Shown: positions 1,863-57,556 of the stretch, piece by piece
Position numbering within the stretch: the first letter of the stretch is position 1
Layout of the letters: each line of letters opens with the position of its first letter
Source: Escherichia phage EP75
Length of the DNA stretch: 64,000 bases
Sequence record: MG748547
Reading direction: 5' to 3' (one strand)
Made by a program: the position numbers and the translations under genes
The notes under the pieces: model-generated
Seen by the model: only the letters and a program-made list of their open reading frames with translations
Database searches by the model: none
What the model was told of the DNA's origin: nothing

Positions 1863-1876
1863 AATATTCAATAAAA

Positions 1877-1898
1877 GGGGCAAAAGCCCCTTTACTTC
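1877..1898 (+). terminator. intrinsic terminator
   Basis: ggggc-aaaa-gcccc hairpin (1877-1890) followed by tttacttctt. Confidence 0.5.
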
Positions 1899-1918
1899 TT
1901 CAATAACCCACGTATAAT
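1891..1918 (+). promoter_or_regulatory. sigma70-type early promoter (TTTACT -35, 16-nt spacer, TATAAT -10)
   Basis: -35 tttact at 1891-1896, -10 tataat at 1913-1918; sits directly after a terminator and ~50 nt upstream of the ATG at 1967. Confidence 0.45.
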
Positions 1919-1966
1919 TCTAAACATAAGCAGTACGACACCAACTTGAAAAGCAGGAACTACATT

Positions 1967-2242
1967 ATGAAAATCATCCTCGACGCATATATCCGTTACG
2001 GCAGCAAATGGTTGATGGCCAAAGTTTACGACGGTGAAGAATTAGTCCACGCCCAAACCGCCCCTTCTGAACAATTGCGTGAAATTATGAAACGCGATTT
2101 TCCTACTGTTGAAATGATTGAACCTGCCAACCAAACCGAAGTTGACAAAGAATGGGAACGCGAATGGAGTCCGGCGGCGTTGGCACAATTTGATAAGAAT
2201 TACAACAATCGCCAAAACGCGTCTCGCCCGTTCCGTCGTTAA
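1967..2242 (+). CDS. hypothetical protein
   Basis: ATG at 1967 preceded by AGGA; the track ORF from TTG 1946 probably over-extends; start lies in a conserved 24-nt element. Confidence 0.45.
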   Translation: MKIILDAYIRYGSKWLMAKVYDGEELVHAQTAPSEQLREIMKRDFPTVEMIEPANQTEVDKEWEREWSPAALAQFDKNYNNRQNASRPFRR

Positions 2243-4713: not shown

Positions 4714-4729
4714 AGCCCCTTCGGGGGCT
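4714..4729 (+). other. GC-rich stem-loop (agcccc-ttcg-ggggct) without U-tract
   Basis: Perfect 6-bp stem with UUCG-type tetraloop immediately after the stop of the 795-aa gene; tail is A-rich rather than U-rich. Confidence 0.4.
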
Positions 4730-4759
4730 AAATACATCAAAATCCTTAGGAGATCCACG

Positions 4760-5581: not shown

Positions 5582-5587
5582 TGACAA

Positions 5588-5616
5588 TCCCCCTAAATAC
5601 AGGGGGATTTCTTTTT
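5588..5616 (+). terminator. intrinsic terminator
   Basis: tccccct / aggggga stem followed by tttcttttt. Confidence 0.55.
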
Positions 5617-5984: not shown

Positions 5985-6047
5985 CTCAATAGGATCATCA
6001 TCAGGTTATAATTTTGCCCATTCGTCATCAATAGGATACAGATAACA

Positions 6048-6665
6048 ATGGGCAAAATCTTTATACCTTCTCACTCAGAAGGTTGTCAAATCGCTGCAAA
6101 ATTTCTACACAAACAAATGAATTGTGGTGCTGTGTTCGTAGAACCAAATTCATTCGATAATCGTGAATCCCCTGACGCCATCGGGTTCAGACCTGGAGGT
6201 TGTTCTATATTAATGGAAGTTAAAGTCTCCCGCGCCGACTTCCTGACAGACAAAAAGAAACCTCATCGCATGAATCCTTCCATAGGCATGGGAGCATATC
6301 GTTTCTATGTTTGCCCAGCAGATGTTATTAAAATTGAAGACCTCCCTCCCAAGTGGGGTTTGTTGTACTTCACCCCTAGAAAATCTTTGAAGCCCGTTCA
6401 CGTTCCAAATATGCAATATTCCTCTTTGTCTTCACCGGAACATTATGCATCATATTTGTCTAAATCTTTGGACAAAAGAAGACCTACAGATATCCCTCCT
6501 TATCTATTAGGGTACAAACAGATGCTGGAAGAATTCGCCCACTTTGAACGCAATCAGGTTGCGGAACAAAATATTCTGTATGGGGCTTGGCGACAGCTTT
6601 GCATAGCTCAAAGTCGCGGGGTGGATTATAATGTGACAGAAGTGTTCCAGAGGCCAAATATCTAA
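6048..6665 (+). CDS. hypothetical protein, possible PD-(D/E)XK-type nuclease
   Basis: ESPDAIGF ... ILMEVKVSRADF resembles a D...E-x-K nuclease core; weak. Confidence 0.35.
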   Translation: MGKIFIPSHSEGCQIAAKFLHKQMNCGAVFVEPNSFDNRESPDAIGFRPGGCSILMEVKVSRADFLTDKKKPHRMNPSIGMGAYRFYVCPADVIKIEDLPPKWGLLYFTPRKSLKPVHVPNMQYSSLSSPEHYASYLSKSLDKRRPTDIPPYLLGYKQMLEEFAHFERNQVAEQNILYGAWRQLCIAQSRGVDYNVTEVFQRPNI

Positions 6666-7729: not shown

Positions 7730-7834
7730 GAACTGACCTAAAACTTTTTAACTCAAAATATTTCCCTCCAGGCCTCGTTCTATGAGGCCTCTTAAAATAC
7801 TTCAAAAATATTTTAAAAATTTATTGAAAAAGAC

Positions 7835-7863
7835 TTTACTCTTCAATAATGACGCACTATTAT
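7835..7863 (+). promoter_or_regulatory. sigma70-type early promoter (TTTACT -35, 17-nt spacer, TATTAT -10)
   Basis: -35 7835-7840, -10 7858-7863, inside a 210-bp AT-rich intergenic region upstream of a highly codon-optimised gene. Confidence 0.4.
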
Positions 7864-7940
7864 AGTTCACATAGGGCGGTACACAACACCCCGCCGAATG
7901 AAAAGTGAAACGAACCAACTACATTATGAGGAATTACATC

Positions 7941-8429
7941 ATGGCTACTACCAAAACTCTGATCACCAACGGCACCATCTCTTTTGAACTGAACACTGAA
8001 GTTGCAAAAGTTGAAATGTTCCGCATCGCTCAGGCAGCTGGCTTCACTGGTGGCAAAACTTCCTTCATGAACCTGCTGAACGGCAAAGTCAAAGCGACCA
8101 ACGGCTTCACCCTGGTTGAGCAGGTTGTGGTTGACAAAGCAGTCGTCGCAAAAACCGCTGACAAAGTTGGCATGCTGAAAGGCCTGGGGCACGACATCCA
8201 CGTTGTTGAAGCTACGACCGAAACTTACGGCACCATCACTGTCGGAAAGGGGCGCATCCAGCTGAACCCGCTGAATAACGGAACCTTCTCTGTGATGGTA
8301 TTCCCGAAAAAAGGTTACGACAACAGCGATATCGTGAAAGCCGCTGGCGGTGAAGCAAAATCCCAATATGTCAAAATGGGTAAACTGAGCGCCGACGCCG
8401 TTGAAACTCTGGTAAGCAAACTGGCATAA
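7941..8429 (+). CDS. hypothetical protein, probably highly expressed
   Basis: ATG at 7941 with GAGGA RBS; codon usage (ctg, ggc, aac, ccg, cgc) is strongly biased compared with neighbouring genes. Confidence 0.5.
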   Translation: MATTKTLITNGTISFELNTEVAKVEMFRIAQAAGFTGGKTSFMNLLNGKVKATNGFTLVEQVVVDKAVVAKTADKVGMLKGLGHDIHVVEATTETYGTITVGKGRIQLNPLNNGTFSVMVFPKKGYDNSDIVKAAGGEAKSQYVKMGKLSADAVETLVSKLA

Positions 8430-8974: not shown

Positions 8975-9044
8975 CATAGCAGTTCCTCAAGTCAGTTCAC
9001 TTTCACTTTAAATACCTCTGCAATCACTGCGGAGGTATTTTCTT

Positions 9045-10784: not shown

Positions 10785-10868
10785 ATACCACACGAACTTC
10801 CCCGTCGCCTTCAATCCATGGAGGCGACGTATAATAACAGCCTGCATTAACACAAACCGAGGATCGCT

Positions 10869-14560: not shown

Positions 14561-14589
14561 AAGCCCCTGATCCAGGGGCTTTACTTTTG
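14561..14589 (+). terminator. intrinsic terminator
   Basis: agcccctg-atc-caggggct hairpin followed by ttacttttg. Confidence 0.55.
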
Positions 14590-14608
14590 AAACCTTCCCG
14601 CCTATACT
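14580..14608 (+). promoter_or_regulatory. sigma70-type early promoter (TTTACT -35, 17-nt spacer, TATACT -10)
   Basis: -35 14580-14585, -10 14603-14608, terminator-promoter junction as at 1877-1918. Confidence 0.4.
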
Positions 14609-14659
14609 TCCCAGTAATTCATTGGCAAACGCCACAAATTGAACAGCAGGAACTATATC

Positions 14660-14893
14660 ATGACCAATTCTGAAATATATCATGCTTCTATGCATTATCA
14701 TGACCTACGCGCCCGTCCAGGACACGCCAAACAAAAAGCATTCTGGGTAGCAGAACTCAGATTACGCCGTGCTGTCGTTAACCACCAAATAATCATGAAT
14801 CGGAAAAACGACAAATCACCGTTGTTGGCAGATTCTTATCTTGAACTCCGCACAGCCTATGAACAAGCCAAACAGCACGTAATAGGAGCATAA
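14660..14893 (+). CDS. hypothetical protein
   Basis: ATG at 14660 with AGGA RBS inside the conserved 24-nt element; the track ORF from TTG 14639 probably over-extends. Confidence 0.4.
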   Translation: MTNSEIYHASMHYHDLRARPGHAKQKAFWVAELRLRRAVVNHQIIMNRKNDKSPLLADSYLELRTAYEQAKQHVIGA

Positions 14894-21529: not shown

Positions 21530-21769
21530 ATGAGCAAAGAGCAAATCTATAAAATGTTGAAGGCGCAAGAGTATCTGCCAGGTTCTATCCGCTGGCGGCA
21601 CGGTAGCCTCAATGAACATGCTGATGATATGGATCGTGTACGTTACACGACGCCGGAAGGTAAATCCTATGTCATCGAATACCATACATTCTTGGAAGGG
21701 CACAAAACCTTCTCAGATGTGTACGATATTATTGAAATAGACCCAGCAAAACAAATGATTGCGGGTTAA
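21530..21769 (+). CDS. hypothetical protein
   Basis: 79-aa ORF. Confidence 0.35.
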   Translation: MSKEQIYKMLKAQEYLPGSIRWRHGSLNEHADDMDRVRYTTPEGKSYVIEYHTFLEGHKTFSDVYDIIEIDPAKQMIAG

Positions 21770-21793
21770 CTCAATAGCAAAACGCAGTATAAT
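21765..21793 (+). promoter_or_regulatory. candidate promoter upstream of the SSB gene (GTTAAC -35, TATAAT -10)
   Basis: tataat at 21788-21793 with a -35-like hexamer 17 nt upstream; ~70 nt before the gene 32-like ATG. Confidence 0.3.
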
Positions 21794-25741: not shown

Positions 25742-25819
25742 TATTCACGTCAGTCCGCGCTATTCCAGCGTTCCGTTGTCTAACACAGAAGTGTTAACCA
25801 ACTTTTCAATAAAAAGTGG

Positions 25820-25847
25820 TTTACATCTTCTAAAAAGGCAGTATATT
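25820..25847 (+). promoter_or_regulatory. sigma70-type early promoter (TTTACA -35, 16-nt spacer, TATATT -10)
   Basis: -35 at 25820-25825 preceded by TTCAATAAAAA; -10 at 25842-25847. Confidence 0.4.
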
Positions 25848-26876: not shown

Positions 26877-26905
26877 TTTAACTCAGAAGCATTCAATAGA
26901 TGAAG

Positions 26906-26938
26906 GGGCTGCTATAATAGCAGCTCCTTTTGTTTATT
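26906..26938 (+). terminator. intrinsic terminator
   Basis: gctgctat-aat-agcagc palindrome followed by ttttgtttatt. Confidence 0.5.
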
Positions 26939-31686: not shown

Positions 31687-33111
31687 ATGTTACTCGAATC
31701 TGTCGTGCTTTCCCAATTAATCTATAACGAAGAATATCAAAGAAAGATCCAGCCGTATTTGAAAGCCGATTATTTCGATAACGAAGGCGAGAAAATTATA
31801 TTCGGTCTCATTGACCATTACACTTGCGAATATAATGCTCGTCCTTCGGTTGAAGCGTTGTCTATTATGCTGGAAAAGACTTCGCTCAACGAACACGTAT
31901 TTGAACAAGCTATTTCTGCTCTTGAGAATATCAATGACAACACATTCCATCAGGAATGGCTTGTAAAAGAAACAGAAAGTTGGGCGCGGCAGAAAGCTGT
32001 TCATAATGCGATCAAACACGCCGTCAACATCTATGGTGATGAGAAACGTAAAGATGAGATGAACACGATTCCAACTCTCCTACAAGAGGCGTTGGCGATA
32101 AGTTTTGATTCTTATCTTGGCCATATCTATTGGGAAATGGCTGAACAACAATACGACCACATGAACTCTAATGAAGCGAAGATTCCTTTCGCTGTAGAGA
32201 TATTCAACAAAGCGACTCGTGGTGGTGTTGGTAAGAAAACGCTGAACATCGTGACGGGTGCAATTAATGCGGGTAAGACAACAACTCTGATTGATTTGGC
32301 TGCTGGTTACTCCGAGCAAGGGTTGAACGTATTCGTATTCACCCTAGAAGTGGCTGAGAACGTCTGGCGTCACCGCCTTGATGCCCGTATGATGCGCAGG
32401 GACTTCGAGTCCTTAGAGAAGCTCTCACGACATGAATATGTCGCTACGATACAAAAGTTGCGAACTCGTCAAGACGGTTCCATGAAGGGTGATATTGTTA
32501 TCAAGGAATATCCTTCAGGCGCTGGGCATACAGGACTGTATCGCCGCGATATTCTTGATTACGCGACATCAACGGGAATTACGCCGGACGTCATTATTAT
32601 AGACTACTTGGGTGAATCAGCGTCTTCTCGTCTTCCTGCTCATTTAATGCAGAACACCAACGTGTATTATACTTCGGTGGCGCGTGAATTCCGTGCGCTT
32701 GGATTTGAATTTGATTGCCCTGTATGGACGGGTATGCAATTTAACCGTGAAAAACAATCGGCGACTGATGGTGATATTAGCGACCTGGCAGATGCTATCG
32801 GTATTCCGAAGGTTGCAGACTTCATCATGGCGTTCTATGCTCCTGATGAACTGGCGGCTGTTAAGAAAGCCAGAGCATCAATCTTGAAAAATCGTTATGC
32901 CAACAAGCAGAAACTCAAATCATTCTTGTTTGGTATGGACCAAGATAAACAGATCTTGTTCGACTTGGACTGGAATGAAGTCAAACGAGACCTGACTGAT
33001 GAAGAAGCCCGTTATGTTGAGAATGTTCATATCAAACATGACTTAAACAAAACAGGCGACTCGAATGATGTCAAGAAAGCCGAGACCGTGAATAATTGGA
33101 ATTTCGGTTAA
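31687..33111 (+). CDS. 41: replicative DNA helicase (DnaB-like, T4 gp41-like)
   Basis: Walker A GAINAGKTT, DnaB-like size; ATG at 31687 after GGTGGGG. Confidence 0.65.
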   Translation: MLLESVVLSQLIYNEEYQRKIQPYLKADYFDNEGEKIIFGLIDHYTCEYNARPSVEALSIMLEKTSLNEHVFEQAISALENINDNTFHQEWLVKETESWARQKAVHNAIKHAVNIYGDEKRKDEMNTIPTLLQEALAISFDSYLGHIYWEMAEQQYDHMNSNEAKIPFAVEIFNKATRGGVGKKTLNIVTGAINAGKTTTLIDLAAGYSEQGLNVFVFTLEVAENVWRHRLDARMMRRDFESLEKLSRHEYVATIQKLRTRQDGSMKGDIVIKEYPSGAGHTGLYRRDILDYATSTGITPDVIIIDYLGESASSRLPAHLMQNTNVYYTSVAREFRALGFEFDCPVWTGMQFNREKQSATDGDISDLADAIGIPKVADFIMAFYAPDELAAVKKARASILKNRYANKQKLKSFLFGMDQDKQILFDLDWNEVKRDLTDEEARYVENVHIKHDLNKTGDSNDVKKAETVNNWNFG

Positions 33112-33140
33112 CTTCAATAATGGTGATCATAGGGTATAAT
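33112..33140 (+). promoter_or_regulatory. candidate promoter (TTCAATAA element, TATAAT -10)
   Basis: tataat at 33135-33140, cttcaa 17 nt upstream. Confidence 0.3.
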
Positions 33141-33174
33141 CTCTATGATCTGAATATTAACCCAGGAGCACATC

Positions 33175-33507
33175 ATGTCGGATGTTGCATTTATAGCTGA
33201 CCTGATTCGGGCGGCACAACAGGTGTGCCAGTCTGGAGAAACCAGTCTCAAACTCACTACAGAGCAGACTCTAGAATTTTATAAGAATCGTCGGCATTGG
33301 GGTAAGAATGTCAAGATACATTGCGAACCAGGTGAATTGGTTCAGCTTGATCTTCCGTCTTTTCCATTGCCAGTACAGACCAACACTCAGGAATATTACA
33401 ATGTTGAAGGCGTTGATATTATTCCTAAGTTTGGTTTTCACAGTATCGTTTATTTCTTCCTGCGCCGTTTGGGAACTAGTATCGGTCCACTCGGTTCTCG
33501 TCATTAA
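33175..33507 (+). CDS. hypothetical protein
   Basis: 110-aa ORF with AGGAG RBS. Confidence 0.45.
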   Translation: MSDVAFIADLIRAAQQVCQSGETSLKLTTEQTLEFYKNRRHWGKNVKIHCEPGELVQLDLPSFPLPVQTNTQEYYNVEGVDIIPKFGFHSIVYFFLRRLGTSIGPLGSRH

Positions 33508-33519
33508 TGAGGATATATT

Positions 33520-33822
33520 ATGTCAGTTGAACAAATTGGTTTTTATCAACTCCCTTCTGATCCAAAACTGCGTCAAAAGATGATGCAGACTTTAGAAAAT
33601 TGTCGTGCCGCCCAGATCCGTATCAAGTCTGAACAGACCTTTGTTACCGAAGCCCTGGCTGAATTGGCAAAAGAAACAGGCATCAAAGCCGTTGATCTGC
33701 GCAAAGTCGTTACCGATCGCGCTGGTGGAACTTATACCAAGACCATCGAGACCAGCGCCAAATACCAAGATCTTTATGAGTCGCTGTATCCTAACGCCGC
33801 GCCTGATCGCACGGATGAATAA
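33520..33822 (+). CDS. hypothetical protein
   Basis: 100-aa ORF. Confidence 0.4.
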   Translation: MSVEQIGFYQLPSDPKLRQKMMQTLENCRAAQIRIKSEQTFVTEALAELAKETGIKAVDLRKVVTDRAGGTYTKTIETSAKYQDLYESLYPNAAPDRTDE

Positions 33823-33830
33823 TATCGGTT

Positions 33831-33857
33831 AAAGCCCAACATTTGTTGGGCTTTACT
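33831..33857 (+). terminator. intrinsic terminator
   Basis: aaagcccaac-attt-gttgggcttt 10-bp stem followed by a T-rich tail. Confidence 0.55.
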
Positions 33858-33882
33858 TCAATAAAACTTTACTTCAATAAAA
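33851..33882 (+). repeat. perfect 16-bp tandem direct repeat (CTTTACTTCAATAAAA x2)
   Basis: Copies at 33851-33866 and 33867-33882; each carries TTTACT plus TTCAATAA. Confidence 0.8.
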
Positions 33883-33896
33883 CTTGCGGCTATCAT
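33868..33896 (+). promoter_or_regulatory. sigma70-type early promoter (TTTACT -35, 17-nt spacer, TATCAT -10)
   Basis: -35 from the second repeat copy (33868-33873), -10 at 33891-33896. Confidence 0.4.
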
Positions 33897-33939
33897 TTAA
33901 CCTACATTGAAAAGTTTCACTACATCATGAGAGGCAAAA

Positions 33940-35133
33940 ATGAAAGCCAAGACCTTCAGCATCCCAATTGATAACATTGGTCGTGTCAAGGAACGTCTTG
34001 CCAAACTTGAAAGAACGGCAAACCGCCTGAAACTCGAGTTCCCTCTTGTTGAGTTCAGTGAACCATACAAAACACAACACCGCTATTCTATCACTGGCGA
34101 AAAATTTTATCGTTGGTGGCAAGATTGTACTCTAACTGGTGAAGGCATCGACCGCCCCGTTTCTTATGGTGGGTGGAGTATCATTGGACAATTCAACCAC
34201 CAGTATCCAAAAGTCATTCTGAATAAACTGTCAGATGACATCCACCAAAATTTCGTTCAAAGATTTGAAGCTGAAAACGTATCTTGGTGCGAGCATTGCA
34301 ACAAATCTGTGCGTCGTCATAACACATATGTCGTTCGTAACGAACAATCTGGCGCACAGATGCTCGTGGGTAGCAGCTGTATGCATCATTATGTCCCGCA
34401 TCAGAAATCCCTTGATGCGGTTATGTCTTATTACATGTCTATTCACGAAATGTTTACCCCCGATGAAGATGACCCAGAAGGGATTTATCGGGTTAATGAA
34501 CCAGATTATGTTGACACAGAAGGATATTTGCGTAAATGCTTTCAGGTTTTGCTGTCCGGCCTGAGCATTAAAAGTGATGATTTTGGTCGAGTTCTTGGTC
34601 ATATCTCTAGCGGTACTCGTCCAGAGAAAGGTTCTGACATTGATATATTCTATAACAAGGCTGTTAAAGCCCGTGAAGATGCTCAATCAGAAATGTACCA
34701 TATGATGCTTTTCATCTCATCGTTGTCTGAAAATAACGATTTCAACGTCCGGCTGAAACGTATGTGCGAACCTGGTTATCACCTTGTTAAAGACTCAACA
34801 ACAGTTCGTTGGGGAGCAGCAAAGTATTATGATTATATCCACACCCCCCGCCAAACGCGCACTGTATCAAATTGGGTTGGTGAAGTTGGTGAAATGTTAG
34901 AAGCACAGGTCAAATTTGAAGCAAGGATTTTCCTGTATTCATCTGATTATGGTGACACGTATCTGTATACTTTCAAAACCAAGGAAGGCAATACCATTAC
35001 ATGGAAGACTTCCTATATGGAAACCGAATTCCTGGAAGGTGATATGATCATTCGTGGTCGCGTCAAAGAATTGACCGAATTCAAAGGTGTTAAACAAACT
35101 CAGATCACAAGGGCAAAACTGAGGAAATTATGA
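33940..35133 (+). CDS. hypothetical protein with Cys/His cluster
   Basis: 397 aa; WCEHCNK ... SSCMHHY suggests metal binding. Confidence 0.5.
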   Translation: MKAKTFSIPIDNIGRVKERLAKLERTANRLKLEFPLVEFSEPYKTQHRYSITGEKFYRWWQDCTLTGEGIDRPVSYGGWSIIGQFNHQYPKVILNKLSDDIHQNFVQRFEAENVSWCEHCNKSVRRHNTYVVRNEQSGAQMLVGSSCMHHYVPHQKSLDAVMSYYMSIHEMFTPDEDDPEGIYRVNEPDYVDTEGYLRKCFQVLLSGLSIKSDDFGRVLGHISSGTRPEKGSDIDIFYNKAVKAREDAQSEMYHMMLFISSLSENNDFNVRLKRMCEPGYHLVKDSTTVRWGAAKYYDYIHTPRQTRTVSNWVGEVGEMLEAQVKFEARIFLYSSDYGDTYLYTFKTKEGNTITWKTSYMETEFLEGDMIIRGRVKELTEFKGVKQTQITRAKLRKL

Positions 35134-35245
35134 TTATTTTTCAATTTGTTTTGAAAGCATTTGCATTCGGTCTTATCGCATGCGGAGTGATCACAGCTAT
35201 GCTGTTAATCATAGCCCTGATCATCCCCTTTAAGAGGAAACGCTG

Positions 35246-37281: not shown

Positions 37282-37286
37282 AAATT

Positions 37287-37304
37287 GGGGTTCTTCGGAA
37301 CCCC
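37287..37304 (+). other. GC-rich stem-loop (ggggttc-ttcg-gaacccc) followed by TTCAATAA
   Basis: Perfect 7-bp stem with UUCG-type loop just after the ligase stop; no U-tract. Confidence 0.4.
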
Positions 37305-37331
37305 ATTCAATAAAGACAGTAGCAGTATAAT
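37303..37331 (+). promoter_or_regulatory. candidate promoter (TTCAATAA element, TATAAT -10)
   Basis: tataat at 37326-37331, weak -35. Confidence 0.25.
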
Positions 37332-46198: not shown

Positions 46199-46225
46199 AA
46201 TTAAGGGGAAGTATACCTTCCCCTT
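46199..46225 (-). terminator. intrinsic terminator (minus strand)
   Basis: aaggggaag-tatac-cttcccctt hairpin; T-rich tail on the minus strand. Confidence 0.45.
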
Positions 46226-46244
46226 TCTTCAATAACCTAAAATA

Positions 46245-57528: not shown

Positions 57529-57556
57529 ATCAAAATTGCTGTGTGTGTGTGTTAAA

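Follow-up and report, generated by a model that had tools for sequence, protein, structure and literature searches.

A conserved octamer marks candidate early and middle promoters in enterobacterial Ackermannviridae phages

Composite cassettes that combine a terminator with an early promoter, called PeSLs, have been described in T4-type phages (Arbiol et al. 2010, PMC2839356; Comeau et al. 2014, PMC4122927), where a stem-loop lies just upstream of a promoter of the form TTTACW-N17-TAYWAT (T4/PST) and is accompanied by an A/T-rich region, a Shine-Dalgarno (SD) sequence with an ATG, and swapped ORFans (PMC4122927). For the ViI-like phages, early and middle promoters were reported as unidentified and MotA and AsiA as missing (PMC3184105). 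According to the paper on phage CBA120, identification of early promoters was unsuccessful and the phage has neither MotA nor AsiA; the AG3 and CBA120 papers found only eight promoters with a sigma-70 consensus. Here we examine an octamer, TTCAATAA (hereafter the box), that recurs in a 64,000-nucleotide stretch of Escherichia phage EP75 (sequence record MG748547; hereafter the window), where a first-pass annotation had proposed that it is a promoter element or a processing site. We report its enrichment between genes, its position and orientation relative to -10 hexamers, its conservation, and a cassette swap. Strong selection acts on the octamer, which is a DNA element associated with promoters. 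It is probably a cis element, recognized at the level of DNA, in pre-late (that is, early and middle) promoters of the enterobacterial Ackermannviridae.

The window holds 20 copies of TTCAATAA when both strands are counted, whereas dinucleotide shuffles gave 4.68 +/- 2.07 copies with a maximum of 12, and none of 100 shuffles attained 20. The plus strand alone carries 12 copies against approximately 2.3 expected. The enrichment reported in the first-pass annotation is thus borne out, including against the shuffled sequences that it had proposed as a check, and all nine plus-strand positions that it listed (1867, 1899, 7842, 25805, 33113, 33857, 33873, 37306, and 46228) are exact matches. However, the octamer is not confined to intergenic regions, as had been claimed. 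Three plus-strand copies within genes (44430, 48385, and 62391) had been overlooked, as had eight minus-strand copies, seven of which are in coding DNA; the single intergenic minus-strand copy, at 7821, forms an inverted pair with 7842. Approximately 10 of the 20 copies are intergenic, though only about 8% of the window lies between genes. A crude open reading frame (ORF) caller scored 11 of 20 as intergenic (binomial p 1e-7), the eleventh copy, at 21729, actually residing within ORF 21530-21769, and TTCAATAA is the top 8-mer of the window for intergenic enrichment.

We extended the comparison to the complete genomes of phage PhiSH19 and Vibrio phage BX-1, 150 kb of Dickeya phage LIMEstone1, and 50 kb each of Klebsiella phage 0507-KN2-1 (KN2-1), Erwinia phage Bue1 (syntenic with the window), and T4. 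In PhiSH19, TTCAATAA ranks first among intergenic-enriched 8-mers, with 23 of 39 copies between genes (p 4e-16), above late-promoter-like CTAAATAC words and terminator stems. It also ranks first in Bue1 (11 of 16 intergenic), second in KN2-1 (8 of 12), and fourth in LIMEstone1 (13 of 27). When these four genomes are pooled, 55 of 94 copies fall within the 8% of the DNA that is intergenic (p 7e-36), and most single-base variants of the octamer exhibit no significant intergenic enrichment; only TTgAATAA, TTCtATAA, and TTCAATAg are clearly enriched, with a weaker effect for TTCAAaAA and TTaAATAA. Positions 1-50 kb of T4 contain 11 copies, none truly intergenic and without enrichment, and the top intergenic 8-mer there is GTTTACTT, the T4 early -35. 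In BX-1, a Vibrio phage of the Ackermannviridae, the 100 kb analysed hold 11 copies, of which only one lies between genes, and no signature is evident; its full 144.6-kb genome carries 19 copies. Because the T4 and BX-1 controls are negative, the octamer signature is specific to the enterobacterial branch of the Ackermannviridae. A scan of IMG/VR for TTTACTTCTTCAATAA returned, among the matches listed, mostly single matches in unrelated contigs.

These data bear on the simplest alternative, namely that the octamer arises by chance or as a by-product of A/T-rich intergenic composition. The box is A/T-rich, intergenic DNA is A/T-richer, and about half of the copies in the window are coding, at roughly twice the chance level. 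Nevertheless, this explanation is scarcely credible, as it is refuted by the shuffles, by the intergenic statistics for the window and the pooled genomes, by the lack of significant enrichment of most single-base variants, and by the T4 control, in which a much more A/T-rich genome shows no enrichment.

The box occupies preferred positions relative to -10 hexamers. Among all box sites in the four genomes, a -10-like hexamer starts 6-14 nt past the box in 35 cases, when each distance bin has a background of 0.71. The distances form sub-peaks at 6-8 nt and 12-13 nt, and upstream box copies account for a further minor peak near 40 nt. Two layouts can be distinguished. Class A resembles a T4 early promoter (TTTACT, 16-17 nt, and TATAAT, TATTAT, or TATACT) and carries the box within the spacer, at approximately -26 to -19; co-oriented sites with a spacing of 6-8 (or 10) nt have TTTAC 0-4 nt upstream of the box, and for those with 6-8 nt the distance is 2-4 nt. 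Many class A sites have a second box, in either orientation, 4-7 nt upstream of the -35 with an A/T-rich tract beyond it (positions 7801-7820 of the window; cassettes 99555 and 144502 of PhiSH19), and at 1867 the second box lies 16 nt upstream of the -35 with a hairpin between. A generic sigma-70 scan found class A promoters at 1891-1918, 7835-7863, 14580-14608, 25820-25847, and 33868-33896. Class B consists of the box, 12-14 nt, and TATAAT, as at 33113, 37306, 26892, 10810, and 5985. These five sites have no -35 hexamer with at least 4 of 6 matches at 16-18 nt, and the generic scan misses class B. The spacing in class B is 12 nt at 9-10 sites, 13 nt at five, 14 nt at two or three, and 11 nt at one or two. 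No TTTAC occurs upstream at sites with 13-14 nt, and at 12 nt only two sites have a TTTAC, at a distance of 7 or 12 nt and thus not in the -35 position. A hidden second -10 at 12-14 nt from the class A box was found neither at 1899 nor in the PhiSH19 cassette 99555.

The genes downstream fit a pre-late role. The -10 hexamers at 1913, 7858, 25842, 33135, 33891, 37326, 6007, 10830, 21788, and 26913 lie approximately 30-80 nt upstream of an ATG and are co-oriented with it. Class B sites precede the DsbA-like operon, the gp59 region, the run of thymidylate synthase, dUTPase, UvsX, and helicase genes, nrdAB, and the primase gene, and the genes behind co-oriented box sites are replication or nucleotide-metabolism genes or unknown ORFs of early type, with no virion genes among them. 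Two features that the first-pass annotation had placed beside the motif can be judged from these sites (Table 1). The GC-rich hairpins are stable, with folding free energies (dG) of -13.6 to -26 kcal/mol and z-scores of -3.2 to -6.8. A TATAAT-like hexamer indeed lies 6-14 nt downstream of the box at 1899, 7842, 33113, 33873, and 37306, but not at 25805, where the -10 is 29 nt away, past a TTTACA -35. The variant boxes it reported exist as well, although displaced by 1-2 bases: CTCAATAG is at 5985 and 21770 (not 5987 and 21771) and TTCAATCC is at 10810 (not 10809).

We compared the upstream regions of orthologous genes over four genera. When the 33113 promoter is aligned across five phages, the longest invariant blocks are TTCAATAA (8 of 8 columns) and GTATAAT, with 12-14 nt between box and -10 that vary in both sequence and length. 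The stem of hairpin 33125-33150 is kept in Dickeya and Klebsiella phages via changes on both arms. The 26892 promoter, which precedes the nucleotide-metabolism, UvsX, and helicase gene run, keeps its 13-nt spacing in five of five phages. For the 7842 promoter, LIMEstone1 (Dickeya) and KN2-1 (Klebsiella) have near-identical orthologues, and in the Bue1 orthologue both boxes are flipped, giving TTCAATAA...CTTTAC...TTATTGAA instead of TTATTGAA...CTTTAC...TTCAATAA. The 25805 promoter has a different box set in Bue1, comprising an inverted upstream copy and a TTCAATAG spacer copy, and its KN2-1 orthologue has only variant words at the box positions. An invariant octamer whose position and orientation turn over appears to be the pattern of a protein-binding site on double-stranded DNA.

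The flipped boxes at equivalent positions argue for recognition on double-stranded DNA and not RNA, and hence against the processing site that the first-pass annotation had suggested. In such a scheme UUCAAUAA would be a processing or cleavage signal in transcripts that read through gene junctions, and one enzyme that might recognize it is the RegB-family endoribonuclease encoded at 607-1224; boxes do lie at gene junctions beside hairpins, and the RegB-family gene is present. We consider this very unlikely. The reverse complement at equivalent promoter positions (7821 versus 1867, and the Bue1 flips) would present a different RNA sequence, and it is the -10 hexamer, rather than a stop or start codon, to which the position of the box is tied. 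Because it is upstream of the -10, the box is absent from the RNA that its own promoter would produce. It is also unrelated to GGAG, the sequence at which T4 RegB cuts. As a separate observation, the gene at 607-1224, just upstream of the 1867 box, has a PhiSH19 orthologue annotated 'T4-encoded RegB endoribonuclease family' and a LIMEstone1 orthologue annotated as a putative RegB protein; we found nothing that connects it with the octamer.

A more substantial alternative, which we regard as possible but rather improbable, is that host sigma-70 RNA polymerase reads the box directly, with TTCAAT serving as a non-canonical -35 in class B and the class A box acting as a spacer or UP-like strength element. 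Immediate-early transcription must depend on the host polymerase, and the hosts of the box-positive phages are all Enterobacterales with near-identical sigma-70, whereas the Vibrio phage is without the box signature. Moreover, TTCAAT agrees with TTGACA at 3 of 6 positions, and a spacing of 13-14 nt places it 15-16 nt from the -10. However, the commonest spacing, 12 nt, leaves just 14 nt between TTCAAT and the -10, too little for sigma-70; orthologues of the single promoter at 33113 have drifted in spacing between 12 and 14 nt; box copies occur in both orientations and on either side of a real -35; and the box is conserved more strictly than a usual -35, and away from TTGACA. T4 early promoters, furthermore, use the same GTTTAC -35 without the box. 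It is also difficult to see how an octamer read through an asymmetric contact by sigma region 4 would stay invariant while its position and orientation turn over.

Because of the first four of these counterpoints, and because class B promoters are otherwise without any -35, the reader of the box could well be a dedicated protein that the phage encodes or modifies, instead of sigma-70 region 4, a proposal to which we give nearly an even chance. We know of no established element, among those of IHF, H-NS nucleation sites, OmpR, FNR, and sigma-28, sigma-32, and sigma-E, whose consensus fits all eight positions of the box. In the mechanism we envisage, the cassette at 1867-1969, which consists, in order, of a box, a terminator-like hairpin, the -35 TTTACT formed by the T-rich tail of the hairpin, a spacer box, the -10 TATAAT, and a conserved 5′ untranslated region (5′UTR) with SD and ATG, would end the upstream unit and then restart transcription. 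At class B promoters the reader protein would replace the -35 contact, in the manner of a MotA box in T4. In class A it would overlap the -35 and spacer and could also shut these promoters off later in infection. A more specific version, which we put forward only tentatively, is that TTCAATAA is the recognition box of a phage-encoded factor that drives the early-to-middle switch, similar to MotA/AsiA in action but unrelated to them. Such a factor would activate the -35-less class B replication promoters from approximately -30 and, at class A early promoters, would block the -35 and the spacer.

Several points weigh against a function of the octamer in pre-late promoters. The intergenic statistics are based on gene calls from a crude, purpose-made ORF caller. 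The box-to-(-10) distances are spread over 6, 7, 8, 10, 11, 12, 13, and 14 nt, which speaks against an activator because one that contacts RNA polymerase is expected at a single fixed position. Two intergenic copies, 46228 (antisense) and 1867 (5′ of a hairpin), have no recognisable promoter of their own. Scans of small ORFs behind or near the promoters with Pfam, PHROG, and NCBIfam yielded no DNA-binding protein tied to the box. Finally, the promoter element proposed in the first-pass annotation is supported by position, orientation, gene context, and deep conservation, but both promoter function and the assignment of classes A and B to temporal classes are predictions from sequence; searches of the accessible literature found no transcript 5′-end, timing, or binding data for any of the Ackermannviridae.

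A weak candidate for the reader is the small protein encoded at 33520-33822. Its sequence exhibits a faint, sub-threshold similarity to Pfam Phage_DsbA in 7 of 21 homologues. It is 100% identical within Kuttervirus, 62-90% identical to metagenomic and other-genus homologues, approximately 65-81% identical in phage records listed for other enterobacterial genera, and 33% identical in the box-negative Vibrio phage. The AlphaFold model has a predicted local distance difference test (pLDDT) score of 85, and a Foldseek search against viral structures, alongside which a PDB sequence search was run, gave no named structural match. Phylogenetic profiling of the window ORFs against box-negative BX-1 left too many candidates.

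Table 1. Box-associated and related features in the 64,000-nucleotide window. Promoter, terminator, and regulator assignments are predictions.
Feature	Position	Strand	Details
Upstream TTCAATAA box	1867-1874	+	5 nt past stop codon of ORF 1224-1862; abuts 5′ side of hairpin
GC-rich stem-loop AAGGGGC-AAAA-GCCCCTT	1875-1892	+	dG -13.6, z -3.75; T-rich 3′ tail doubles as -35 region
Class A promoter	1891-1918	+	-35 TTTACT 1891-1896; 16-nt spacer with box 1899-1906; -10 TATAAT 1913-1918; sigma-70 match 10/12
5′UTR, SD, and ATG module	1942-1970	+	Right end of cassette; repeats at 7901-7929 and 14635-14663
Variant box CTCAATAG (class B)	5985-6012	+	Box 5985-5992; 14 nt; TATAAT 6007-6012; upstream of ORF 6048-6665 and primase gene
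Class A promoter, box-flanked	7821-7863	+	Inverted box TTATTGAA 7821-7828; -35 TTTACT 7835-7840; box 7842-7849; -10 TATTAT 7858-7863
Variant box TTCAATCC (class B)	10803-10835	+	Box 10810-10817 in loop of hairpin 10803-10829; 12 nt; TATAAT 10830-10835; upstream of nrdA
Class A-type cassette without exact box	14580-14608	+	TTTACT, 17 nt, TATACT; TTTTGAAA 14585-14592 in place of box; after hairpin 14562-14582
Variant box CTCAATAG	21766-21793	+	-35 TTAACT 21766-21771 overlaps box 21770-21777; 10 nt; TATAAT 21788-21793; upstream of gp32-like ssDNA-binding protein gene
Promoter, upstream box only	25805-25847	+	Box 25805-25812; -35 TTTACA 25820-25825; -10 TATATT 25842-25847
Variant box TTCAATAG (class B)	26892-26930	+	Box 26892-26899; 13 nt; TATAAT 26913-26918 in loop of terminator-like hairpin 26902-26930
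Class B promoter	33113-33140	+	Box 33113-33120; 14 nt; -10 TATAAT 33135-33140, in loop of hairpin 33125-33150
Weak candidate box-binding protein	33520-33822	+	100 aa; PHROG 639 ('transcriptional regulator'); gene between 33113 promoter and doubled box
Doubled-box site	33831-33896	+	Hairpin 33831-33854; box 1 33857-33864; -35 TTTACT 33868-33873; box 2 33873-33880; 10 nt; -10 TATCAT 33891-33896
Class B promoter	37286-37331	+	Hairpin 37286-37305 abutting box 37306-37313; 12 nt; -10 TATAAT 37326-37331
Hairpin and box	46203-46235	+	Hairpin 46203-46225; box 46228-46235; conserved in LIMEstone1

Some of the sites in Table 1 depart from the two basic layouts. The hairpin at 1875-1892 would be a weak or borderline intrinsic terminator, predicted to end the upstream unit; we grade it in this way because a generic terminator scan gave no plus-strand call there. 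At 33831-33896, the unit formed by CTTTAC and the box is duplicated in tandem with a period of 16 nt. The box at 46228 is antisense to local transcription, because it is located between two minus-strand genes, and the 46203-46235 site looks like a cassette with a decayed -35 (CCCCTTTCTTCAATAA). Hairpins that hold a -10 (33125-33150 and 26902-26930) or a box variant (10803-10829) in the loop could be terminators with an embedded promoter, or they could aid promoter opening. The ORF at 14660-14893, behind the 14580 cassette, was found only in Kuttervirus sequences.

Further observations concern the regions downstream of two promoters. ATCTGA at 33149-33154 is invariant in the five aligned phages, 9-14 nt downstream of the -10 at 33135-33140 and just past the expected start. 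ORF 7941-8429, behind the 7842 promoter, encodes a 162-aa protein (PHROG 3764, no Pfam hit) with 93% full-length identity to its LIMEstone1 orthologue and 95% over the first 120 residues. It appears to be an unusually constrained early protein, because this identity is well above that of most neighbouring genes.

The window also contains a second intergenic signature, (C/T)TAAATA(C/T), located in or beside GC hairpins at 522-529, 4728-4735, 5593-5600 (in the loop of 5586-5609), and 9008-9015. It resembles the T4 late promoter TATAAATA, and in PhiSH19 ACTAAATA is intergenic in 9 of 9 cases and TAAATACC in 10 of 13. This signature is probably the gp55-type late promoter of the phage family, likewise fused to terminators.

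We assign the window to a ViI-like phage (Ackermannviridae, Kuttervirus) because of its matches to Salmonella phage Marshall (93% identity over the first 20 kb), to PhiSH19 (99.9% for positions 33000-35200), and to many other Kuttervirus genomes. Aligned to the whole PhiSH19 genome, it corresponds to the reverse complement of approximately 928-64879, in segments of 84-99% identity. Replication and nucleotide-metabolism genes are on the plus strand, interleaved with minus-strand baseplate and tail genes. Compared with PhiSH19 and Marshall, the window is a mosaic, with 97-99% identity to PhiSH19 over 29666-64000 and only 84-93% identity over 2262-29391, which points to recent recombination among Kuttervirus lineages. 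A (TG)6 microsatellite is present at 57540-57551, in an intergenic gap between minus-strand genes.

The cassette at the left end of the window is itself a widespread repeat. The 107-nt stretch 1863-1969 has matches at 787 places in 281 phage records, nearly all of them named Ackermannviridae, with 2-4 per genome. For nearly all of them the identity is 80-100%, and this extends to the Dickeya and Klebsiella phages, for which the CBA120 and LIMEstone papers give an overall DNA similarity to Kuttervirus of approximately 60-70%. When the window is compared with PhiSH19, near-identity extends through the cassette, breaks at the start codon at 1967, and resumes after the next hairpin near 2262; in place of ORF 1967-2242 (91 aa), PhiSH19 has an unrelated, longer ORF between identical flanks. 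The 1867-1969 stretch is a dispersed-repeat cassette that bounds a swapped ORF. The ORF at 1967-2242 is also present in KN2-1, at 77% identity.

A repeat of this kind raises the question of whether the box has any function of its own, since cassette copies might be spread and homogenised by recombination and provide homology for ORF shuffling. This explanation draws on the long similarity among class A cassettes, which runs from the box through the ATG, on the ORF swap bounded exactly by a cassette, and on the PeSL literature, which proposes recombination between such repeats. We nonetheless consider it quite unlikely. The class B promoters of core genes share only the box and -10, yet the box is invariant over four genera despite diverged flanks; boxes are gained, lost, and flipped independently of the remaining cassette; and only two of approximately nine alignment breakpoints between the window and PhiSH19 lie near a box.

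A role of the octamer in pre-late promoters would be useful in several ways. If a phage factor reads it and drives the early-to-middle switch, this would answer the question, posed in 2011, of how pre-late timing is achieved in MotA/AsiA-less phages with heavily modified thymidine DNA. The ViI-like phages (Kuttervirus and relatives) are widely used in biocontrol, diagnostics, and engineering against Salmonella, E. coli O157, Klebsiella, and Dickeya. Since the octamer marks most of the pre-late promoter candidates found, it could guide promoter annotation in approximately 280 genomes and the design of expression cassettes and reporters, and it could be used as bait for the regulator, for example as the box probe TTATTCAATAA. 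The cassette structure would in addition explain where small ORFs are exchanged between relatives. If the box is a mere polymerase-contact variant, it would provide a useful annotation rule only.

With respect to earlier descriptions, promoters in these phages have already been predicted, and the box and its reader are undescribed in the searchable papers. Literature on promoters and transcriptomes of Viunalikevirus, Ackermannviridae, Kuttervirus, and CBA120, as far as it is searchable, yielded no description of the motif, and full-text matches to the TTCAATAA string included none on these phages among the matches listed. The abstract of a 2012 paper on Viunalikevirus in Arch Virol reportedly mentions 'conserved regulatory sequences', so a prior description of the motif there is possible. 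The LIMEstone1 record (HE600015; PMC3296691) agrees with our sites in that it annotates orthologous positions as putative promoters, which was one of the comparisons suggested in the first-pass annotation: the orthologues of 1899, 7842, and 33873 are labelled 'putative middle promoter' and that of 25805 'putative early promoter'. The record bases these calls on resemblance to T4 consensus hexamers and does not name the octamer, and its early and middle labels do not follow the box layout.

Among T4 promoters, the middle class offers the closest likeness to class B. As with the MotA box at -30 (and the PmSL variant in Vibrio phage nt-1), the class B box lies approximately 12 (+/- 1-2) nt upstream of a good -10 with no -35, and the same gene set is found downstream: gp32, primase, helicase, nrd, thymidylate synthase, and gp59. 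However, the sequence TTCAATAA bears no relation to the MotA box, (a/t)3TGCTT(t/c)A; no TGCTT was seen at class B sites, and Pfam scans of 20 mostly small ORFs from the window and PhiSH19 gave no MotA or AsiA hit. Unlike the MotA box, TTCAATAA also occurs within and upstream of -35-bearing promoters, in both orientations. We therefore view the resemblance as a functional analogy and not as membership. With T4 early promoters the sites share the unusual -35 core (G/C)TTTAC(T/A)T, and CTTTACTT is among the top intergenic 8-mers of the window (compare T4 GTTTACTT), whereas T4 (1-50 kb) is without the TTCAATAA box signature.

The most extensive likeness is to the PeSL cassettes. Here, too, a stem-loop directly precedes its own promoter (1875-1892, 33831-33854, 37286-37305, and 14562-14582), the -35 and -10 are of the T4/PST type (TTTACT/A, 16-17 nt, and TATAAT, TATTAT, or TATACT) with an A/T-rich tract upstream, and a conserved SD and ATG are located at the 3′ end of several dispersed copies per genome. 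The cassettes similarly stand beside small unknown ORFs that vary between close relatives, with one swap bounded exactly by a cassette. In contrast to the PeSLs of Straboviridae, those described here belong to Ackermannviridae and carry an additional octamer, strictly conserved and located within the spacer, upstream of the -35, or at both places. This octamer is unmentioned in PMC4122927 and also marks conserved core-gene promoters that have no cassette homology. On this comparison, the window cassettes appear to be the ViI-like-phage version of PeSL, set apart by a family-specific octamer.

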